From: a bacterium
GTDB taxonomy: Bacteria; Cyanobacteriota; Vampirovibrionia; Gastranaerophilales; JBAXKC01
Assembly: GCA_037137535.1 (NCBI GenBank)
Contig: JBAXKC010000025.1
Coordinates: forward strand, 1 to 42,334
Direction: 5' to 3'
Length of the DNA stretch: 42,334 nt
Position 1 is the first letter of the stretch. Each line of letters begins with the position of its first letter. The position numbers and the translations under genes were made by a program. The notes beneath the pieces are model-generated. The model had not been told where the DNA came from, did not search any database, and worked only from the letters and a program-made list of their open reading frames with translations. Of the stretch, positions 24,431 to 32,630 are shown in pieces.

Positions 24431-26287
24431 TTAAACAGGCATTTTTTCGGAATTTATAACTTGCAAGGGAAGTCTAAATCCAAAAGTGCTGCCTTCTCCA
24501 TTTTTACTTTCCGCAAAAACCTGACCACCATGATGTTTTTCTATGGCAATCTTAACCAGATGCAAGCCTAGTCCTGTTCCTTTTATAGTATGGGCTTTTG
24601 TTTCCACCCTATAAAACCTGTCAAATATTTTTGGCAAGTGTTCTTGTGGTATTCCCATACCGTTATCCTCAACAGAAACTTGAAGATATTTACCTGTTCT
24701 GTCGACTTCAGCTCTGATTTTAACCCTTCCACCGGTGTAAGAATATTTTATGGCGTTAGAAATTAAATTTTTAATTACTCTTTCAATACTTTCAGAATTA
24801 AACATTACCTGCGGAAGATCTGACTCTAAAAGAACTGAGAACTGCAATTTTTTCTCATCAGCAAGCACTTTCATTGATCTTAAAGTTAGCTCAATAACGG
24901 GAGAAATATCACATAATGACTTATCAAGCTCTACATTAGGTGATTCCAGCCTTGAGAAGTCCAATATATCGTTCACCATTCTATTTAAACGATCTGATTC
25001 TTCATCTAATATAGACATAAACTCTTTTTTGGTTTTATCATCAAGATCTGCTCCATAATTATGAAGAGTGTCTATATAACTTCTTATTACTGTTACAGGA
25101 GTTCTAAGCTCATGACTAACATTAGAAATAAACTGATTTTTCATCATGTCAATTTCAGCTTCTTTTGTAATATCGTGAAGAACGGCTATATATCCTAAAT
25201 ACTCCTGATTATTAGTAAAAATTGGTGACATGATTAATTTTACGATTTTATTATTTAATTTAATTCTACTTAACTGAGGTCTAGCTTCAATCTCCTCAAG
25301 CGGAGTATCCTTAAATTTTCTTACTTCCTCTTTAAAGCTGATGTCACCGTTTCCATCATAATAATCGGTAATTTTAACATTTAAAATTTCCCTTGTTTTC
25401 ACTTCCATCATTTTTAATGCCGCGTTATTGACAAGAACGATTTTATCAAGATTATCGCAAACTATTACACCATTAGCAATTCCCATAAGAATAGATTCAA
25501 GTTTATTTCTCTCATAAGTAAGCTGATCAATATTTTTTTCTTCATACTCGCGAAGTTTTATCGACATATCGTTAAAAGCTTCAAAAAGTTGCTTTATCTC
25601 ACCCCATAAATCACGTGAAGCCAATTTATAGCCGAATTCACCCGTAGAAATCTTTCTGACGCCTTCAACAAGGAGTTTTACCTGTCTTGCTATCAACAAA
25701 GTATTAATAGAAACAGCAGCAATCGAAAGAATCCAGGCAATACTGAAAATAACCATCATCAGATATCTTGCCGCCTGTCCGACAATTTTCATTGTATAAC
25801 CGGTCAATCCAAGCTGAACAGAACCTATTGCACTTTTACCCTGTGCAGTATATGCCACAACGGGTTGACTTATCTCAATAAAACTTTCTGATTGATTATC
25901 AGAGCTTTGCTTATTTGAAAAGAGTATATTTCCTCTATTATCAAGGAAAACAATATATAGAATATCTTTATTTTCTCTGATAACAAGGTTTGACATATTT
26001 CTGAATTTATTTTCAGTTTCGGGATTGTCTTTATTTATTATAAAATCGCTGCCTTCGGTAGAAAGAGTTCTGGCAAGCATTATGCCAAAATCATGATAAC
26101 TTGAAAGAAGTGTTTTTTGAGTATTATCAATTACTATCCATGCAATAAAAATCACTAAAAAAGAGCTTAAAAAAGAGCCTAAAATAAGGATTTTATTGGG
26201 AGTTGTCATTCCCTTACCCTCATTTTGGTCATCAATCCGTTTTTTAATAATGTGTTTTATTAGATTACTCATTATTTTATCTGACAA
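24431..26287 (-). CDS. nblS: Sensor histidine kinase, NblS/Hik33-like (TM-HAMP-PAS-HisKA-HATPase); start may be 26272 or 26209
   Basis: YEEKNIDQLT.E..KLE, FISNVSHELRTP and FYRVE...HT..GTGLGL resemble cyanobacterial Hik33/NblS. Confidence 0.75.
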   Translation of the reverse strand: MSDKIMSNLIKHIIKKRIDDQNEGKGMTTPNKILILGSFLSSFLVIFIAWIVIDNTQKTLLSSYHDFGIMLARTLSTEGSDFIINKDNPETENKFRNMSNLVIRENKDILYIVFLDNRGNILFSNKQSSDNQSESFIEISQPVVAYTAQGKSAIGSVQLGLTGYTMKIVGQAARYLMMVIFSIAWILSIAAVSINTLLIARQVKLLVEGVRKISTGEFGYKLASRDLWGEIKQLFEAFNDMSIKLREYEEKNIDQLTYERNKLESILMGIANGVIVCDNLDKIVLVNNAALKMMEVKTREILNVKITDYYDGNGDISFKEEVRKFKDTPLEEIEARPQLSRIKLNNKIVKLIMSPIFTNNQEYLGYIAVLHDITKEAEIDMMKNQFISNVSHELRTPVTVIRSYIDTLHNYGADLDDKTKKEFMSILDEESDRLNRMVNDILDFSRLESPNVELDKSLCDISPVIELTLRSMKVLADEKKLQFSVLLESDLPQVMFNSESIERVIKNLISNAIKYSYTGGRVKIRAEVDRTGKYLQVSVEDNGMGIPQEHLPKIFDRFYRVETKAHTIKGTGLGLHLVKIAIEKHHGGQVFAESKNGEGSTFGFRLPLQVINSEKMPV

Positions 26288-26299
26288 ACCCTTCTTAAT

Positions 26300-26878
26300 C
26301 TACTGAAGAGAGGAAAGTATCATTGTACTTACTGACTTTAAACAGGCAAATACGCCTGATCCTTGACTAGCCATTGCTTCATAACTGGGGAAACCGTACG
26401 GATTAAACAAACGTTCAAGCTCTTCCAGCTCCATGGCATTATCTAAGTCTCTTTTATTATACTGTATAACTATAGGCAAAGTTTTCATTGAAAGACTAAA
26501 ACTTGTTAAATTCTCTTCAAGATTTCTTAAACTCTCAAGGTTTTCATCTTTTCGGTCTTTATTTGAGTCAATAACAAAAATAATACCGTCAACCCCATTT
26601 AAAAGCAGTTTCCTTGCGGCATTATATTCCGCCTGTCCCGGAGTTGAATATAAACTAAAAGTAGTTGTAAATCCTTTAATTGTTCCAAGATCTATTGATA
26701 GAAAATCAAAAAACAAGGTTCTTTCATTAAAACCTTTTAAATTAGTTATATCACTTCTTATTGAATGATTGAGCTGACTGTAAATATATTCTATATTAGT
26801 GGTTTTACCGGACTCTCCTGTCCCATAATATACAATTTTACAATTTACTTTTTGCTCCGCATAGTTAACTAATACCAA
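26300..26878 (-). CDS. mglA: MglA-family small GTPase
   Basis: KIVYYG...SGKTTN, RTLFFDF, TPGQ, GVDGIIFV.DS, QYNKRD. Confidence 0.88.
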   Translation of the reverse strand: MVLVNYAEQKVNCKIVYYGTGESGKTTNIEYIYSQLNHSIRSDITNLKGFNERTLFFDFLSIDLGTIKGFTTTFSLYSTPGQAEYNAARKLLLNGVDGIIFVIDSNKDRKDENLESLRNLEENLTSFSLSMKTLPIVIQYNKRDLDNAMELEELERLFNPYGFPSYEAMASQGSGVFACLKSVSTMILSSLQ

Positions 26879-27022: not shown

Positions 27023-28978
27023 CTATAACTCATCAAATAATTTTTCTAATGCCTTCATATCATCACCACATTCATCTAATCTGGATCTAAGGTCACTTGC
27101 TGAATATTGTTCACGAAAAGCCATATAAATATTTGTTTTAAACTCATGAATCGCATCCAATTCTTTTGTCAAAGCATCAATTTTACCCTTTAAAAAAGCT
27201 TCTTCATTTTTTTTAGTTTCTTCAGACTCTTGCTTATCCTTAATTCCATCAAGCAATTTTTTACATTCTGCTATTTCTTGTTTTATTGATAAATTATATT
27301 CTTTAAGTTCTTTATTTTCTTTATAAATTTCTTCAAAATGCTTTGTTTCTTCTGCTTTGTGTGAGTTATGTCTTAATTCAATAATTTGCTTTGTGACAAC
27401 AGGAAGTAAATCTTGAAGAACCGTTTTATCTTTAAATGCGTTTATTACTTCTCTTGTATTTGTTGATAACCTTGCTATTTCTGTTTTTGCAAGCTCTCCT
27501 TTTATAGAATGTTCTATCTCTGGATTATCAGCCAAAAAGGCTTTTAACTCATTTACTTTATCCTGCACCGCATCTGCCGCTTGAAGATCTAACATATTAT
27601 TAATTTGATTAAACGCAACGGTAGTTAATAAAGCATCAAATAATATATTTGGAATATCTTTTTTGGGATCAAATTTTTCATGACTTTCAGATAAATGATG
27701 AGAAAGTGTAGTAATCAACGAGGCTGTAAATTGTCCGCCTAACGTATCAAAGCCCGCTTCATGAGCTGTATCATAAAGAGAAGCAAGCACTGAGGCATAA
27801 TCTTTAGGAAAAATATCTATAAGATTCTTTATCTGCTCTACATTTTCAGGACTTGCTATATCAGCCGCAACACCGACAAGTGTTCTCGCCCCTACATAAG
27901 CTACTGATTGAACAAGTTGATGCTGCCTGTCTAGTTTTTCACAATAAACATCTTTAACAAAAGTCCTGCCCATAGATGCTGTTGTTAAAAAGGTAAGTCC
28001 TGCATTAATACTTCTTACCGCTAAAGAAATAGGCACATGAGTCGCTCCTCCCGTTGCAGGACCTGACATTAAATGAGCCTTTACACCTGCTCCAGCAACA
28101 AGAGCCTTTGTTGCACTTAACCTTATGTTATGAGATTTATACCCCTCACGTCCCAAAAATATTAATGCTGACAATGTATCTATATTATTTTGCTTCGCTA
28201 GAGATAAAGTCATTAAAAGCTGAACAGCTGCAACTGGCAAAGTATCAGCCATTAAAGATGAAGTCTCACCTGCCATAAAAGATTGTCCTGCTGCTGCAAC
28301 AGCTGCAATATCAACTATGGCATATTCTTTATTTTCCTCCAGATTTTTCTTTAATTTTTCTATTTGAGCCTTTAGCGAATCTATAAAATTAAACGGTTTC
28401 TCATTACCTTTAAAACTAATAGGTGCATTGTTAAATTTAAGATCAGCTTTTTTCTCTTCTTCCATATCTCTAAGTGTTTGAGCCATAACTTTTTGCCACT
28501 TCGCCTGTCTTTCCAGCTCTTTATAATCGTCAGAATTTTTATCAAAAGTTGAATTTTCCAATTCCTTCAAAAACACATCTGAATTATTATCAAGAGCTTT
28601 GGATAAAAGTCTTGATACTTTAAAATCTTTAAAAACAAAAGCACAATATCTGGCAGAAAACTCGGGATCATAAAATATATTTTCTATATTTTCAGGTTTT
28701 CTATATCTAAGAATTAACTTTTTAACATTAGCCTTATCTTCATCAGTAAAATTTAACGCTTTTGCAACTTGTTGTTCCCAAGACGAAAAAATAATTCCAT
28801 CCTCTTTTTTAATTTTATGGACGGAATTAAAGTTAACCATATATCTTGGTGAACTTGAAAAAGAATGAAAATTTGATTCATTATGTAATGCAGTATCGCT
28901 GACATCCTTAATATTATTCTTTTTAATGCAATTATTATATTCTGAAAATTTAGACATACTTAAATTATTAATACGCAT
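27023..28978 (-). CDS. Hypothetical protein with a DUF697/YcjF-like hydrophobic core and C-terminal coiled coil
   Basis: AAVAAAG...AD.LP..AVQ..M...LA pattern; internal ISFKG motif; E/K-rich C-terminus. Confidence 0.6.
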   Translation of the reverse strand: MRINNLSMSKFSEYNNCIKKNNIKDVSDTALHNESNFHSFSSSPRYMVNFNSVHKIKKEDGIIFSSWEQQVAKALNFTDEDKANVKKLILRYRKPENIENIFYDPEFSARYCAFVFKDFKVSRLLSKALDNNSDVFLKELENSTFDKNSDDYKELERQAKWQKVMAQTLRDMEEEKKADLKFNNAPISFKGNEKPFNFIDSLKAQIEKLKKNLEENKEYAIVDIAAVAAAGQSFMAGETSSLMADTLPVAAVQLLMTLSLAKQNNIDTLSALIFLGREGYKSHNIRLSATKALVAGAGVKAHLMSGPATGGATHVPISLAVRSINAGLTFLTTASMGRTFVKDVYCEKLDRQHQLVQSVAYVGARTLVGVAADIASPENVEQIKNLIDIFPKDYASVLASLYDTAHEAGFDTLGGQFTASLITTLSHHLSESHEKFDPKKDIPNILFDALLTTVAFNQINNMLDLQAADAVQDKVNELKAFLADNPEIEHSIKGELAKTEIARLSTNTREVINAFKDKTVLQDLLPVVTKQIIELRHNSHKAEETKHFEEIYKENKELKEYNLSIKQEIAECKKLLDGIKDKQESEETKKNEEAFLKGKIDALTKELDAIHEFKTNIYMAFREQYSASDLRSRLDECGDDMKALEKLFDEL

Positions 28979-29126
28979 AAGCAACCCACCAATCCACTAA
29001 AAACATAGAAGTATTATTTGTAAATTTTTATCAAATCCAAGCCTAAAACAATTGAAAAAGAAAAAAAAGGTGTATAGAATACATTTGTAATTTTTTTTAA
29101 CACCTATTTACAGGGGAGTGGTAAAA

Positions 29127-29465
29127 ATGCAATTAACAACAGCTAATTATCCTACATATCAAAAAAACACAGCTAAACAGCAAGTGGCTTTTTCAGGGAA
29201 TATCGGAACTAAGATTGTTGATAAATGTTGGGAAAATCATGATAAGGCTTATAATGCTCTAGGTAAACAATACAATAAAGCCTGGGGTAGACATGCTTTA
29301 GTTTGTGATGAAATAGTAGTAAAAAATATAGCCCAAACTATAGAAAAAAAATGTCCTGCCTTACATAAATTTGCTAACAGTAAAGTTGGAGGTGCGGTTA
29401 TAATGGTTGCCGAAAGTATCGTTGGTGGCATAATATTTGGAACTTTATTTAATAAATTTTACTAG
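29127..29465 (+). CDS. Tandem-array paralogue 1 (modules A-X-P), 112 aa
   Basis: AGGGGAG RBS before ATG 29127; homologous to the next four ORFs. Confidence 0.85.
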   Translation: MQLTTANYPTYQKNTAKQQVAFSGNIGTKIVDKCWENHDKAYNALGKQYNKAWGRHALVCDEIVVKNIAQTIEKKCPALHKFANSKVGGAVIMVAESIVGGIIFGTLFNKFY

Positions 29466-29476
29466 GATTTAATAAT

Positions 29477-29812
29477 ATGCAATTAACAACAAGAACAACA
29501 GCTAATTATCCTACATATCAAAAAAACACAAATAAACATCAAGTAGCATTTTCTGGCAATATCGGAACTAAAATTGTTGATAAATGCTGGGAAAATCATG
29601 ATAAGGCCTATGGTGCTTTAACAAAAGCATGTAATGAAGGTAATGCCAGACATTATAAAGCTGTTATAGAAACACTTCCTAAATACATAGAAAAAAAATG
29701 TCCTGCTTTCTATAAATTTGCTAATAGTAAAACTGGATTTGTTGTCAGAATGATTGCAGAGGGTATTGTAGGCGGTATAGTAGGCGGAACTTTAATTAAG
29801 AAATTTTACTAG
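29477..29812 (+). CDS. Tandem-array paralogue 2 (modules B-Y-Q)
   Basis: Intact 111-aa ORF; AGGA RBS overlaps the previous stop codon. Confidence 0.85.
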   Translation: MQLTTRTTANYPTYQKNTNKHQVAFSGNIGTKIVDKCWENHDKAYGALTKACNEGNARHYKAVIETLPKYIEKKCPAFYKFANSKTGFVVRMIAEGIVGGIVGGTLIKKFY

Positions 29813-29823
29813 GATTTAATAAT

Positions 29824-30171
29824 ATGCAATTAACAACAAGAACAACAGCTAATTATCCTACATATCAAAAAAAAACAGCTAAACAGCAAGTGGCCTTTTC
29901 GGGAAATATTGGAACTAAAATTGTTGACAAATGCTGGGAAAATCATGATAAGGCTTATAATGCTCTAGGTAGACAATACAATAAAGCTTGGGATAGACAT
30001 GCTTTAATTTGTGATGAAATAGTAGTAAAAAATATTGCCAAAACTATAGAAAAAAAATGTCCTGCTTTCTATAAATTTGCTAATAGTAAACCAGGATTTG
30101 TTGTCAGAATGATTGCAGAAGGTATTGTAGGCGGTATAATAGGCGGAACCTTATTTAATAAATTTTACTAG
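29824..30171 (+). CDS. Tandem-array paralogue 3 (modules A-X-Q)
   Basis: Intact 115-aa ORF. Confidence 0.85.
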   Translation: MQLTTRTTANYPTYQKKTAKQQVAFSGNIGTKIVDKCWENHDKAYNALGRQYNKAWDRHALICDEIVVKNIAKTIEKKCPAFYKFANSKPGFVVRMIAEGIVGGIIGGTLFNKFY

Positions 30172-30182
30172 GATTTAATAAT

Positions 30183-30530
30183 ATGCAATTAACAACAAGA
30201 ACAACAGCTAATTATCCTACATATCAAAAAAACACAAATAAACATCAAGTAGCATTTTCTGGCAATATCGGAACTAAAATTGTTGATAAATGTTGGGAAA
30301 ATCATGATAAGGCTTATAATGCTTTAGGTAGACAATACAATAAAGCTTGGGATAGACATGCTTTAGTTTGTGATGAAATAGTAGTAAAAAATATTGCCAC
30401 AACTATAGAAAAAAAATGTCCTGCTTTGTATAAATTTGCCAATACTAAAATAGGCAAAGAAATCTGCTATATTGCTTATTTATCAGTTGGTGCAGCTGCT
30501 GGCTATTTCATGAGTAAATATTGGTATTAA
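30183..30530 (+). CDS. Tandem-array paralogue 4 (modules B-X-R)
   Basis: Intact 115-aa ORF with a unique C-terminus. Confidence 0.85.
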   Translation: MQLTTRTTANYPTYQKNTNKHQVAFSGNIGTKIVDKCWENHDKAYNALGRQYNKAWDRHALVCDEIVVKNIATTIEKKCPALYKFANTKIGKEICYIAYLSVGAAAGYFMSKYWY

Positions 30531-30545
30531 ACAGGATTTAATAAT

Positions 30546-30881
30546 ATGCAATTAACAACAAGAACAACAGCTAATTATCCTACATATCAAAAAAAAACAA
30601 ATAAACAACAAGTGGCTTTTTCAGGAAATATTGGAACTAAAATTGTTGATAAATGCTGGGAAAATCATGATAAGGCTTATAACGCTTTAACAAAAGCATG
30701 CAATGAAGGCGATGCTAGACATTATAAAGCTGTTATGGAAACACTTCCTAAATACATAGAAAAAAAATGCCCTGCTTTCTATAAATTTGCTAACAGTAAA
30801 GTTGGAGGTGCCATTATAATAGTTGCCGAAAGTATAATTGGCGGTATAATAGGCGGAACTTTATTTAATAAATTTTACTAG
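30546..30881 (+). CDS. Tandem-array paralogue 5 (modules A/B-Y-P)
   Basis: Intact 111-aa ORF. Confidence 0.85.
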   Translation: MQLTTRTTANYPTYQKKTNKQQVAFSGNIGTKIVDKCWENHDKAYNALTKACNEGDARHYKAVMETLPKYIEKKCPAFYKFANSKVGGAIIIVAESIIGGIIGGTLFNKFY

Positions 30882-30926
30882 GATTTAATAATATGCAATT
30901 AAAAATTTATCAGTTAAAATATAACC

Positions 30927-32630
30927 ATGATAAATTCAATTCATATTAAAAACTTTGCTCTTATTGATAAAATAGAAATCCCTTTTAACAAAGGGTTAAA
31001 TATACTTGCAGGCGAAACAGGAGCAGGTAAAAGTATTATTATTGATGCTATTGATGCGGCTTTTGGGGCAAGAACTTCAAAAGAGTTCATTAAATCGGGC
31101 GAAAAAAAAGCATTTGTCGAATTGACAATAAAACTTGAAGACAGCTTTCCCTTTGAATTATTGGCTGAAAATGAAATAGAAATTGAAGAAGATAATATTC
31201 TTACCGTTTCAAGAGAAATTTCTCAAAGCGGTTCTAAATCAAGAATTAACGGCATAATTGTAACTCAGAACTATATTAATAATTTAAGAAAATATCTGCT
31301 TGATATTCACAGTCAGCATGAAACTTATACTTATATTAATCCTAAAACACATCTGACTTTATTAGACAGTTATGGCGGAGAAAACCACAGAAAAATGATT
31401 GAAGAGTTTTCCACCGCTCATAATCAATTTAAAAGCCTAACAAAACAATTAAACTCTATAAAATCGGGAATACAGGAAAAAACAAGACGAATAGATTTTT
31501 TAAGCTATCAGGTTGAAGAAATATTTTCTGCAAAAATCAAAAATGCCGAGGAATACACACAATTAATTGAAGAACGAGAATTATTAATCAATGCCGAAGA
31601 GTTAAAAACCTCTTCATATTCAGGCTATGAATTAATTTACGGACAAGAAAACAGCGTAATAGATCTTTTAAGCGGTATAGAAAAGAAACTGGAAAAATTA
31701 TCGAGCTACGATAAACAATTAGGCGAAATAGCAGGGACAATCTCCTCTGCAAAAATAGAATTAAAAGATGCTGCTGAAACGCTTATGGATTACTCCGAAA
31801 ATATTGATGCAAATCCTTATAAACTTGAACAAATTGAAGAAAGAATTGAAACTCTCGAAAAATTAAAAAGAAAATATGGACCAGAGCTTAGCGATGTTAT
31901 TTCAAATCTTGAAAAATTTGAAACAGAACTTGAAGAAATCTCTTTCAGCGATGAAAAAATTTCTGAATTAGAAAATAAACTTAACTATATTGAAAAAGAG
32001 ATGATAAATTATGCCAATAATCTTTCTAAAAACAGAAAGATTTTATCTGAAAAATTATCATTATTAATTCAAAAGGAAATAAAAAAACTTGAAATGCCTC
32101 ATGCAAAATTCTTAATCGGAGTTAATTCCGATAATGACATCACTTCAAACGGTTTTGATAATGCAGAGTTCTTAATTTCAACCAATCCGGGGGAAGACTT
32201 AAAACCCTTGGCAAAAGTTGCGAGTGGGGGCGAAATTTCAAGAATAATGCTCGGAATGAAAACAGTTTTTGCAAAATCTGATAAAGTGAACACAGTTATT
32301 TTTGATGAAATAGATACAGGAATAAGCGGAAAAACTTCTCAGGCGGTTGCGGAAGAACTCGCAAGCCTATCAGCTTCGCATCAGATACTTTGTATAACTC
32401 ACCAGCCTATAATTGCAGCAATGGCGGACAAATATCTCTTTGTAGAAAAATTCCAAGAGGAAAATTCAACAAAAGTTGAAGTCAAAGAATTAAACAGGGA
32501 AGAAATAATCAGAGCCCTCGCAAAACTTGCAAGCGGCTCTGAAAATAATGATGAATCTATTAAATTTGCTCAAAATCTTATTGATAAAGCAACTGAATAT
32601 AAAGAAAATCTCTTAACCACCGCAAGTTGA
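30927..32630 (+). CDS. recN: DNA repair protein RecN
   Basis: GETGAGKSII, HSQHE, ASGGEISR, FDEIDTG, CITHQP. Confidence 0.97.
   Translation: MINSIHIKNFALIDKIEIPFNKGLNILAGETGAGKSIIIDAIDAAFGARTSKEFIKSGEKKAFVELTIKLEDSFPFELLAENEIEIEEDNILTVSREISQSGSKSRINGIIVTQNYINNLRKYLLDIHSQHETYTYINPKTHLTLLDSYGGENHRKMIEEFSTAHNQFKSLTKQLNSIKSGIQEKTRRIDFLSYQVEEIFSAKIKNAEEYTQLIEERELLINAEELKTSSYSGYELIYGQENSVIDLLSGIEKKLEKLSSYDKQLGEIAGTISSAKIELKDAAETLMDYSENIDANPYKLEQIEERIETLEKLKRKYGPELSDVISNLEKFETELEEISFSDEKISELENKLNYIEKEMINYANNLSKNRKILSEKLSLLIQKEIKKLEMPHAKFLIGVNSDNDITSNGFDNAEFLISTNPGEDLKPLAKVASGGEISRIMLGMKTVFAKSDKVNTVIFDEIDTGISGKTSQAVAEELASLSASHQILCITHQPIIAAMADKYLFVEKFQEENSTKVEVKELNREEIIRALAKLASGSENNDESIKFAQNLIDKATEYKENLLTTAS

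Follow-up and report, generated by a model that had tools for sequence, protein, structure and literature searches.

How did five adjacent small genes come to be built from the same few parts, each in a different combination? The question is raised by a 42,334-nt contig of a bacterium of the Gastranaerophilales (JBAXKC010000025.1, assembly GCA_037137535.1), analysed in its full length and referred to below as the window, which carries between positions 29127 and 30881 a tandem array of five open reading frames (ORFs), g1 to g5. We consider, with a probability of about 75%, that the array is an orphan family of five tandem paralogs made mosaic by ordinary recombination among its copies, with products that would be anchored in the membrane by their C-terminal tails.

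Architecture and coding status of the array

The five genes lie on the forward strand. The first, g1 (29127-29465, 112 amino acids), consists of leader A, middle module X and tail P, g2 (29477-29812, 111 amino acids) of B, Y and Q, g3 (29824-30171, 115 amino acids) of A, X and Q, g4 (30183-30530, 115 amino acids) of B, X and the unique and less hydrophobic tail R, and g5 (30546-30881, 111 amino acids) of an intermediate leader, Y and P. The order A-X-P, B-Y-Q, A-X-Q, B-X-R, (A/B)-Y-P given in a preliminary description of the sequence is exact according to the ORF list and the protein alignment. All five ORFs are intact, co-oriented and 111-115 amino acids long, and antisense ORFs within the array do not exceed 60 amino acids. 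A GGAG ribosome-binding site of its own precedes g1, which lacks three codons near the N-terminus and starts with ATG, an open GTG being also present upstream at 29118; in g2 to g5 an AGGA ribosome-binding site lies 9 nt 5' of each ATG and overlaps the preceding stop codon. The array was recovered independently by Tandem Repeats Finder (TRF; period 359, 5.0 copies, 79% matches), the gene-to-gene period is 347-363 nt, and the genome-like G+C content (30.7% versus 31.4% for the genome) marks the DNA as native.

In the protein alignment a first linker of 23 residues is invariant in all five proteins, and a second one, IEKKCPA..KFAN, is conserved in all of them; at the DNA level the linkers are 86-100% identical. 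Leader TAKQQ is found in g1 and g3, TNKHQ in g2 and g4, and the intermediate form TNKQQ in g5. The middle module is of type X in g1, g3 and g4 and of type Y in g2 and g5, the two being separated by a four-codon indel that makes Y the shorter, with DNA identities of 92-96% within type and 46-48% between types. Tail P is carried by g1 and g5 (87% identical), Q by g2 and g3 (91%) and R by g4; P and Q are 71-77% identical, and comparisons of any tail with R give 42-48%.

The five ORFs are real genes under strong purifying selection in their conserved parts. Over the first linker (26 codons, about 16 synonymous sites) each pair shows 2-8 synonymous differences, namely 5-8 in nine of the ten pairs (synonymous divergence, dS, 0.42-0.86) and 2 in g2-g4 (dS 0.14). 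Nonsynonymous differences, over about 62 sites, are absent from six of the ten pairs and number two in each of the four pairs that include g2. Since silent changes abound and replacements are near nil, the frame must be under strong purifying selection, and the same pattern implies that the linkers stay alike chiefly through selection on the protein rather than through recent homogenisation. The intact ORFs with silent linker differences noted at the outset are thus borne out by the ORF list and by the substitution counts. In the variable modules nonsynonymous divergence (dN) is much higher than in the linkers, with a within-type dN/dS of 0.16-0.5, i.e. not positive selection.

Incompatible genealogies of gene segments

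It had been pointed out that no two copies share a combination. This is correct as stated and unremarkable alone, because with three X and two Y to be paired with two P, two Q and one R, random pairing yields five distinct combinations in 12 of 30 cases. The remarkable point is that the modules have incompatible genealogies. The alignment of the five genes contains 58 parsimony-informative sites in 348 ungapped columns. The split {g2,g5} is supported by 26 sites in the middle, {g1,g5} by 10 sites in the tail (against g2 and g3) and {g2,g4} by about 7 in the 5' part, and these three splits are mutually incompatible. The observed pairwise homoplasy index (PHI) was 0.19-0.34 against a permuted mean of 0.454, and 0 of 10,000 permutations were as low (p = 1e-4). 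Maximum-likelihood trees of the segments paired g2 with g4 in the 5' segment (98%), g2 with g5 in the middle (100%) and g1 with g5 in the 3' segment (85%). In approximately unbiased (AU) tests, the 5' segment rejected the middle tree (p = 2.8e-5), the middle segment each of the two other trees (p < 1e-50), and the 3' segment likewise each of the two others (p = 0.008 and 0.005). For the 5' segment the 3' tree escaped rejection (p = 0.12), as it too pairs g2 with the long g4 branch. A GENECONV-like test of concordant runs was significant for g2-g3, g2-g4, g3-g4 and g1-g4 (p = 2e-4 each, uncorrected for the ten pairs tested) and not for g1-g2, g2-g5 and g1-g3. The minimum number of recombination events (Rmin = 14) was not used, being inflated by saturated, poorly alignable columns.

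Different segments of these genes therefore have mutually incompatible genealogies, and the initial claim that the modules imply incompatible copy relationships is upheld by the PHI, the AU topology tests and the concordant runs. Per-module trees and PHI gave conflicting, supported splits; the congruent trees that serial duplication would leave were not obtained. An alternative without recombination would have the copies diverge independently after serial duplication and acquire their shared modules by parallel changes. In its favour stands only the fact that the array was made by tandem duplication. It is scarcely tenable here: multi-site modules (26 and 10 informative sites) support incompatible splits, a common tree is rejected by the AU tests, and a parallel four-codon indel together with about 40 parallel substitutions is not credible.

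Assembly of the locus

Mosaic genes may also be created by a short-read metagenome assembler that mis-joins or collapses repeats, or merges strains. Some observations would suit such a chimera. Logan contigs (k=31) of the best-matching sequencing run, X1, break at every conserved stretch, and so neither confirm nor contradict the gene order. A hybrid protein with the head of g2 and the tail of g3 is encoded on a 2056-nt contig of another public assembly (European Nucleotide Archive, ENA), where its sequence is that of g2 as far as the second linker and that of g3 from there on. Finally, a contig of run X3 carries g1 with the tail differences of g5: the sites at which it departs from g1 are precisely the ten that distinguish g5 (10/10). 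The X3 variant and the hybrid both lie between shared words of 31-48 nt or 45-73 nt, and they are possibly products of bubble-popping or collapse. They could be real variants or artefacts of the assembly graph.

The composition of the genes is much less exposed to this problem. Same-type modules always differ from each other, by 3-10 bases, hence they were not copied and pasted by the assembler. Exact repeats within genes do not exceed 45 nt, and the links between X or Y and the tails are fixed by single-nucleotide differences in the linker that fall within 31-mers. Three other runs from two studies reproduce the Y-Q, X-Q and X-P junctions with 0-1 differences up to the tail: Y-Q in g2 is bridged by a contig of run X3, from the second study (29612-29822, 0 differences), X-Q in g3 by a contig of X2 (29911-30162), and the passage from X to a P tail in g1 by a contig of X3 (29282-29568), while a contig of X4 joins the g2 tail to the leader and X module of g3 (29687-30075). 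The only repeats longer than 45 nt are a gene-to-gene junction (63-73 nt, five copies) and one two-copy repeat of 142 nt, and a two-copy repeat is unable to reorder a linear path. As the long repeats lie only at the junctions, it is the order of the g2 to g4 bodies that is ambiguous, not their composition. Unique pieces of the array in X1 have a depth of 33-52 against 38-39 in the flanks and look single-copy, though these figures cannot rank the gene parts. Intragenic chimeras are very unlikely, and we give an assembly origin of the mosaics as a whole little credence.

Breakpoints, junctions and timing of exchanges

The most recent exchange is marked by the exact 142-nt repeat (29445-29586 and 30151-30292, forward strand), in which the 3' end of g1, the spacer and the 5' part of g2 are identical to the 3' end of g3, the spacer and the 5' part of g4, into the first linker. 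In g4, the switch from g2-like to g3-like sequence occurs between alignment columns 132 and 159, within the first linker, and the middle that follows is g3-like at 80 of 83 positions (dS 0). The second linker and tail of g3 are shared with g2, beginning at a 45-nt exact repeat in the second linker (dS 0-0.17), and g5 joins a g2-like middle (dS 0.26) to a g1-like tail (dS 0.32) with a switch inside the second linker. Shared modules thus have a dS of 0 to 0.32 against a background of 0.4-0.9, a spread indicating that the events are distributed over a long history and do not form a burst. The proposal that exchange takes place at the conserved linkers holds for the breakpoints that can be placed, which fall there, but exchange is not confined to the linkers, and fine-scale mosaicism is also present within the first linker itself. 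The mosaic site patterns inside this linker imply that short conversion tracts have occurred as well.

Between genes, the conserved junction recurs as exact repeats of 63-73 nt (29454-29526, 29801-29873, 30160-30232 and 30533-30599, forward strand), each made of the 3' end of a gene, an 11-15 nt spacer that contains the AGGA ribosome-binding site, and codons 1 to 16 of the gene that follows. Among g2 to g5 it has 0 variable sites in 63, against 11 in 75 in the first linker (Fisher p = 0.00096); for third codon positions the counts are 0 in 16 and 9 in 25 (p = 0.0068). This may reflect a peak of conversion at the junction or a constraint on the nucleotides as such. The junction is A-rich and its RNA is less folded than 189 of 200 shuffles (z = +1.42), as is expected for an open translation start. 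An RNA element was considered and dropped, as no Rfam family matches (best E = 0.97) and folding is weaker than in the shuffles.

A further partial copy is present downstream of g5, where a 23-nt remnant of the junction (30880-30902, forward strand), including the first 10 nt of an ORF, is followed by unrelated sequence. The 10 nt that end this remnant of a sixth unit are identical to the start of g1, and the presence of this repeat at both ends of the array suggests that the first duplication probably arose by unequal exchange there. An 18-codon ORF at 30893-30949 (forward strand), a leftover of the truncated sixth unit, overlaps the start codon of recN in another frame.

Mechanism of exchange

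The machinery expected of a dedicated diversification system was searched for in the 37 non-array ORFs of at least 100 amino acids in the window. None matches reverse transcriptase, recombinase or transposase families, in line with the original remark that the window holds no reverse transcriptase or recombinase, and across the genome as a whole (81 contigs, with an estimated completeness of 100%) RVT_1 is without a match. Strong inverted repeats are also missing from the locus, where only weak ones were found (16-18 nt at 78-82%). There is no dedicated diversification enzyme, the genome being free of reverse transcriptase and the window free of recombinase.

By elimination, and by analogy with the staphylococcal lpl cluster discussed below, general homologous recombination is left. 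The copies would have recombined repeatedly by the general, RecA-type pathway, through unequal crossing-over and short-tract gene conversion. Exchange would begin where selection keeps the copies alike, in both protein linkers and especially in the 63-73 nt junction, and would bring together in new pairs long-standing alleles of the middle helix (X, Y) and of the C-terminal tail (P, Q, R). In age such exchanges would extend from the very recent (dS 0, with 142 identical bases) to the old (dS about 0.3), in an array that probably originated by unequal exchange at the 10-nt direct repeat still flanking it.

A programmed system, such as a diversity-generating retroelement, a shufflon-type invertase or silent-cassette switching, would instead shuffle the modules at high frequency. 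It would account for the modular look with sharply conserved linkers, for the perfectly conserved 63-73 nt junctions and for the two possible variant combinations in other data. Besides the missing enzymes, several features speak against it: the repeats are all direct, apart from the weak inverted ones; every one of the five copies is intact and has a ribosome-binding site of its own, which leaves no silent cassette; the differences are of all base types and not adenine-specific; shared-module dS reaches 0.32, pointing to slow turnover; and in runs X1, X2 and X4 the covered parts of the locus are free of variant letters. Such a system is thus highly improbable. The idea that the array is a device now generating a repertoire likewise finds no support, as dS in the shared modules extends from 0 to 0.32 and the events are spread over a long time.

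Distribution of the family

Searches at all levels returned little beyond the locus itself. A profile of the five proteins run against 5.77 billion sequences recovered only the products of the locus and the g2/g3 hybrid. An exhaustive HMMER pass over 1.84 billion cluster representatives gave the family's own cluster and one marginal match, P0007 (E = 1.3e-5), a giant repeat protein of 1747 amino acids with Cys-containing repeats of about 145 amino acids. A 27-residue motif of P0007 is 44% identical to the start of the first linker of the array (hhalign probability 64.6%), and no homolog of P0007 was found in this genome; it was set aside as an unsupported lead. Six-frame searches returned nothing credible in 60 relatives of the order (three chance-level matches, E 0.002-0.005) and nothing at E <= 1e-4 in 400 genomes of the class. 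No related locus was found by scanning genome and metagenome contigs with protein patterns and a 27-nt junction pattern, or genome contigs with a recN-based scan.

Family databases agree with this picture. Pfam gave no significant match for g1, g2 and g4, the sole hit being a sub-threshold match to OATP, and NCBIfam, PHROGs and PADLOC had none for the array proteins, in accordance with the first impression that they belong to no named family. A sequence search of the PDB gave 0 matches at E <= 10. In the Atlas only sub-threshold hypothetical proteins of Melainabacteria were retrieved (0.80-0.84), with all structure matches at a template modelling (TM) score <0.5. The labelling of the organism as a freshwater Melainabacterium relies on these neighbours and on the descriptions of the sequencing runs. 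Comparison of the locus upstream of recN, suggested as a check in the preliminary description, revealed tandem small ORFs in the 1.5 kb upstream of this gene in 0 of 29 relatives. Judged by these sequence searches, the family is a lineage-restricted orphan.

Predicted products

Each protein has a hydrophilic N-terminal part of about 85 residues with a net charge of +6 to +8 and no apparent signal peptide, followed by a single hydrophobic segment at the extreme C-terminus (Kyte-Doolittle 19-residue mean 2.07 for P, 1.59-1.66 for Q and 1.14 for R). AlphaFold2 models are all-helical and of low confidence (pLDDT 41.2 for the whole protein and 44.0 for the N-part). The invariant residues are C34, W35, H38, R55-H56, C76-P77, A95 and G100, the last two in the tail; R55-H56 is the only conserved pair inside the variable middle, and GxxxG spacing is kept in every tail type. 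The simplest reading of these features is that the products are proteins held in the inner membrane by their C-tails, with a small helical cytoplasmic domain. This domain may bind a metal or cofactor via the Cys/His set, and the five isoforms, likely to be produced together from a single operon that includes recN, probably bind one another by way of their tails. Our best guess for their role would be that of an oligomeric regulator or stress protein which is tethered to the membrane and possibly binds a metal or cofactor.

The main functional rival keeps the same recombinational history and makes the products membrane-active toxins, bacteriocin-like peptides or their immunity proteins. They would then form a polymorphic repertoire for competition, in which the middle helix and the tail serve as specificity modules. 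Diversified small genes in tandem typify toxin and immunity loci, and the much higher dN of the variable modules fits this role. In addition, C-terminal glycine-zipper or GxxxG helices are, in the accounts of these proteins used here, the toxic part of several membrane-depolarising toxins, among them TelE and EsxX, type VII secretion effectors of the LXG type, whose hydrophobic C-terminal helix with GxxxG or glycine-zipper spacing resembles the tails of the array. Unlike them, the array lacks an LXG domain and an immunity partner, and type VII genes are absent from its vicinity. More generally, the proteins match nothing in PADLOC, Pfam, NCBIfam or PHROGs, the window is devoid of a secretion system, double-glycine leader, C39 transporter or partner gene, no signal peptide is apparent, the neighbourhood is housekeeping, and the dN/dS values given above do not indicate positive selection. 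We regard a toxin or immunity role as unlikely. An array of class II bacteriocin precursors or of ribosomally synthesised and post-translationally modified peptide (RiPP) precursors was rejected, as the window has no Pfam family for double-glycine or cleavable leaders, maturation or export; the discrete allelic classes and the second conserved linker inside the presumptive core also run counter to a RiPP-like interpretation.

A little less probable again is that the array is an actively recombining combinatorial repertoire in which the middle helix and the membrane tail are independent specificity modules of a tail-anchored set. If so, it might amount to a code that serves, for instance, self/non-self distinction, competition or immunity among freshwater Melainabacteria, the 63-73 nt junction would be the preferred exchange site, and the g2/g3 hybrid and the contig of g1 with a g5 tail, from a second lake, would be genuine population variants.

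Genomic context

The gene recN (30927-32630, forward strand; SMC_N match, E = 1.5e-16) begins 46 nt 3' of g5, and no terminator-like site was found between them. A sigma-70-like promoter candidate, TTGAAA-17-TAGAAT (29052-29080, forward strand), matches 10 of 12 consensus positions and ends 47 nt before the ATG of g1; it is a consensus match only, 33 of which occur in the region against 19.8 +/- 4.6 in shuffles. From the promoter-like site before g1 and the lack of a terminator-like site before recN, the array is probably co-transcribed with recN. No RNA data set was listed among the sequencing runs that contain the locus. A perfect 13-nt palindrome at 29071-29083 overlaps the -10 hexamer of this best promoter match, inside a longer GGTGT...ACACC inverted repeat. 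It occurs once in the genome, its degenerate form only four times genome-wide, and it could be an operator. A link to recN through the SOS response was abandoned, since no LexA_DNA_bind match exists in the genome.

In 12 of the 29 relatives, the NAD kinase gene, with tlyA before it, lies directly upstream of recN. Here tlyA-ppnK is on another contig (C1:164548-165760) and the array occupies the corresponding place. As the sequence upstream of recN differs from that of relatives and tlyA-ppnK is elsewhere, the array lies at a lineage-specific rearrangement. Divergent from the array is a gene for a protein of 653 amino acids with no Pfam family and a Gly/Ala-rich hydrophobic core (27023-28984, reverse strand). 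Homologs (24-25% identity) are present in 2 of 60 relatives, where they are fused to or followed by an AAA+ ATPase (L014, 730-3087; L013, 1072-2784 plus 1-1068); these homologs have no small-gene arrays alongside, and a link of this protein to the array is not established. An Arf/Ras-like small GTPase gene (26300-26878, reverse strand) is located directly downstream of the 653-amino-acid gene and upstream of a HAMP-PAS histidine kinase gene (24431-26287, reverse strand), and the two (24431-26878) could form a signalling module. The remainder of the window neighbourhood is of housekeeping type, including the shikimate pathway, TsaBDE, pyrF, TatC, an RseP-like protease and others.

Other tandem paralog sets were observed in the genome, namely three type IV pilin-like genes (C14:28577-30984), three flagellin genes (C44:12398-15601) and three small acetyltransferase-like genes (C3:13338-15368). 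Giant ORFs on contigs C20, C2 and C46 contain long intragenic repeats (TRF period 243).

Comparison with known systems and significance

The closest parallel is provided by the lpl (lipoprotein-like) cluster on nuSa-alpha and the SA1317 cluster of Staphylococcus aureus, in which crossing-over at conserved intragenic sequence re-pairs the variable regions of ORFs (Tsuru & Kobayashi 2008, PMC2568036). The lpl cluster, as far as that account is drawn on here, likewise consists of paralogs in tandem on one strand whose variable regions are separated by conserved intragenic sequence, shows incongruent trees for the variable regions of one ORF, and has its exchanges attributed to homologous recombination at the conserved sequence. 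It also has a conserved stretch of gene end, spacer and next gene start, which corresponds here to the 142-nt repeat and the 63-73 nt junction. The array displays the same defining traits: five tandem same-strand paralogs, linkers at 86-100% identity against 42-48% between module types, and incongruent trees. Candidates for rearrangement between strains are the g2/g3 hybrid in ENA and the g5 tail in g1 in X3, both of which are explicable by collapse or bubble-popping at words of 45, 31 and 48 nt. The differences, set against the same account, are that here two conserved linkers and three variable parts are packed in a gene of about 340 nt, that the products are not lipoproteins and have no signal peptide, that the array is not on a genomic island, and that a single genome is available, which limits comparison between strains.

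Patchwork identity, with recently homogenised tracts beside old diverged ones, is also a feature of partial gene conversion and concerted evolution, processes seen in tandem bacterial paralogs such as babA/babB of Helicobacter pylori. The array differs in its five copies, its discrete allelic module classes and a combinatorial look in place of simple homogenisation. On the side of the products, YqjD, ElaB and YgaM of Escherichia coli (DUF883) are C-tail-anchored ribosome-binding proteins (10.1101/2024.08.16.608256; PMC6389858). As portrayed in these sources, they would share with the array proteins, as predicted here, a size of about 100 amino acids, the lack of a signal peptide, a basic helical N-part, a single C-terminal membrane helix and the occurrence of several paralogs per genome; their paralogs are dispersed and do not form a recombining tandem array, and g1, g2 and g4 match no Pfam family, DUF883 included, at E <= 0.01. 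Diversity-generating retroelements and shufflons resemble the array in outcome only, through variant C-terminal parts on a constant frame; the former differ from it in their reverse transcriptase, for which the genome has no counterpart, and in an adenine-specific pattern not seen here, the latter in an invertase, missing among the 37 window ORFs, and in inverted repeats, which are only weak at this locus.

Several points weigh against an orphan mosaic family of tail-anchored proteins formed by ordinary recombination. The body of g4 (30266-30526) is covered by no contig in the four runs, which would also suit a chimeric assembly, although a gap of this kind proves nothing. The order of the g2 to g4 bodies hinges on reads or k-mers that exceed the 63-73 nt junction in length, the passage checked being g2 to g3, through the X4 contig. 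The identity of the junctions could reflect selection on an unstructured translation start instead of conversion. The family is found in one genome only, so that the direction, rate and timing of exchanges are not measurable, and the unit spanning adjacent genes that the lpl model, in the account cited, involves is seen only as the 142-nt repeat within the array. As for the products, tail R is weakly hydrophobic and may not span the membrane, and the suggested topology, oligomerisation and metal binding are drawn from composition and conserved residues, with low-confidence models.

Mosaic tandem paralogs diversifying by ordinary recombination are a known kind of system, and no new mechanism is revealed by this locus. 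It stands out by its compact layout of three modules, by the perfect conservation of its gene-to-gene junction and by the lack of detectable relatives. The array is a compact example of tandem-paralog diversification, in which 1.75 kb display purifying selection on the linkers, old modules and exchanges of several ages, in a member of the poorly known non-photosynthetic sister group of cyanobacteria. As a family for which about 15 billion predicted proteins offer no detectable relative and which is nonetheless clearly under selection, it is a candidate for studying the origin and expansion of lineage-specific small membrane proteins.

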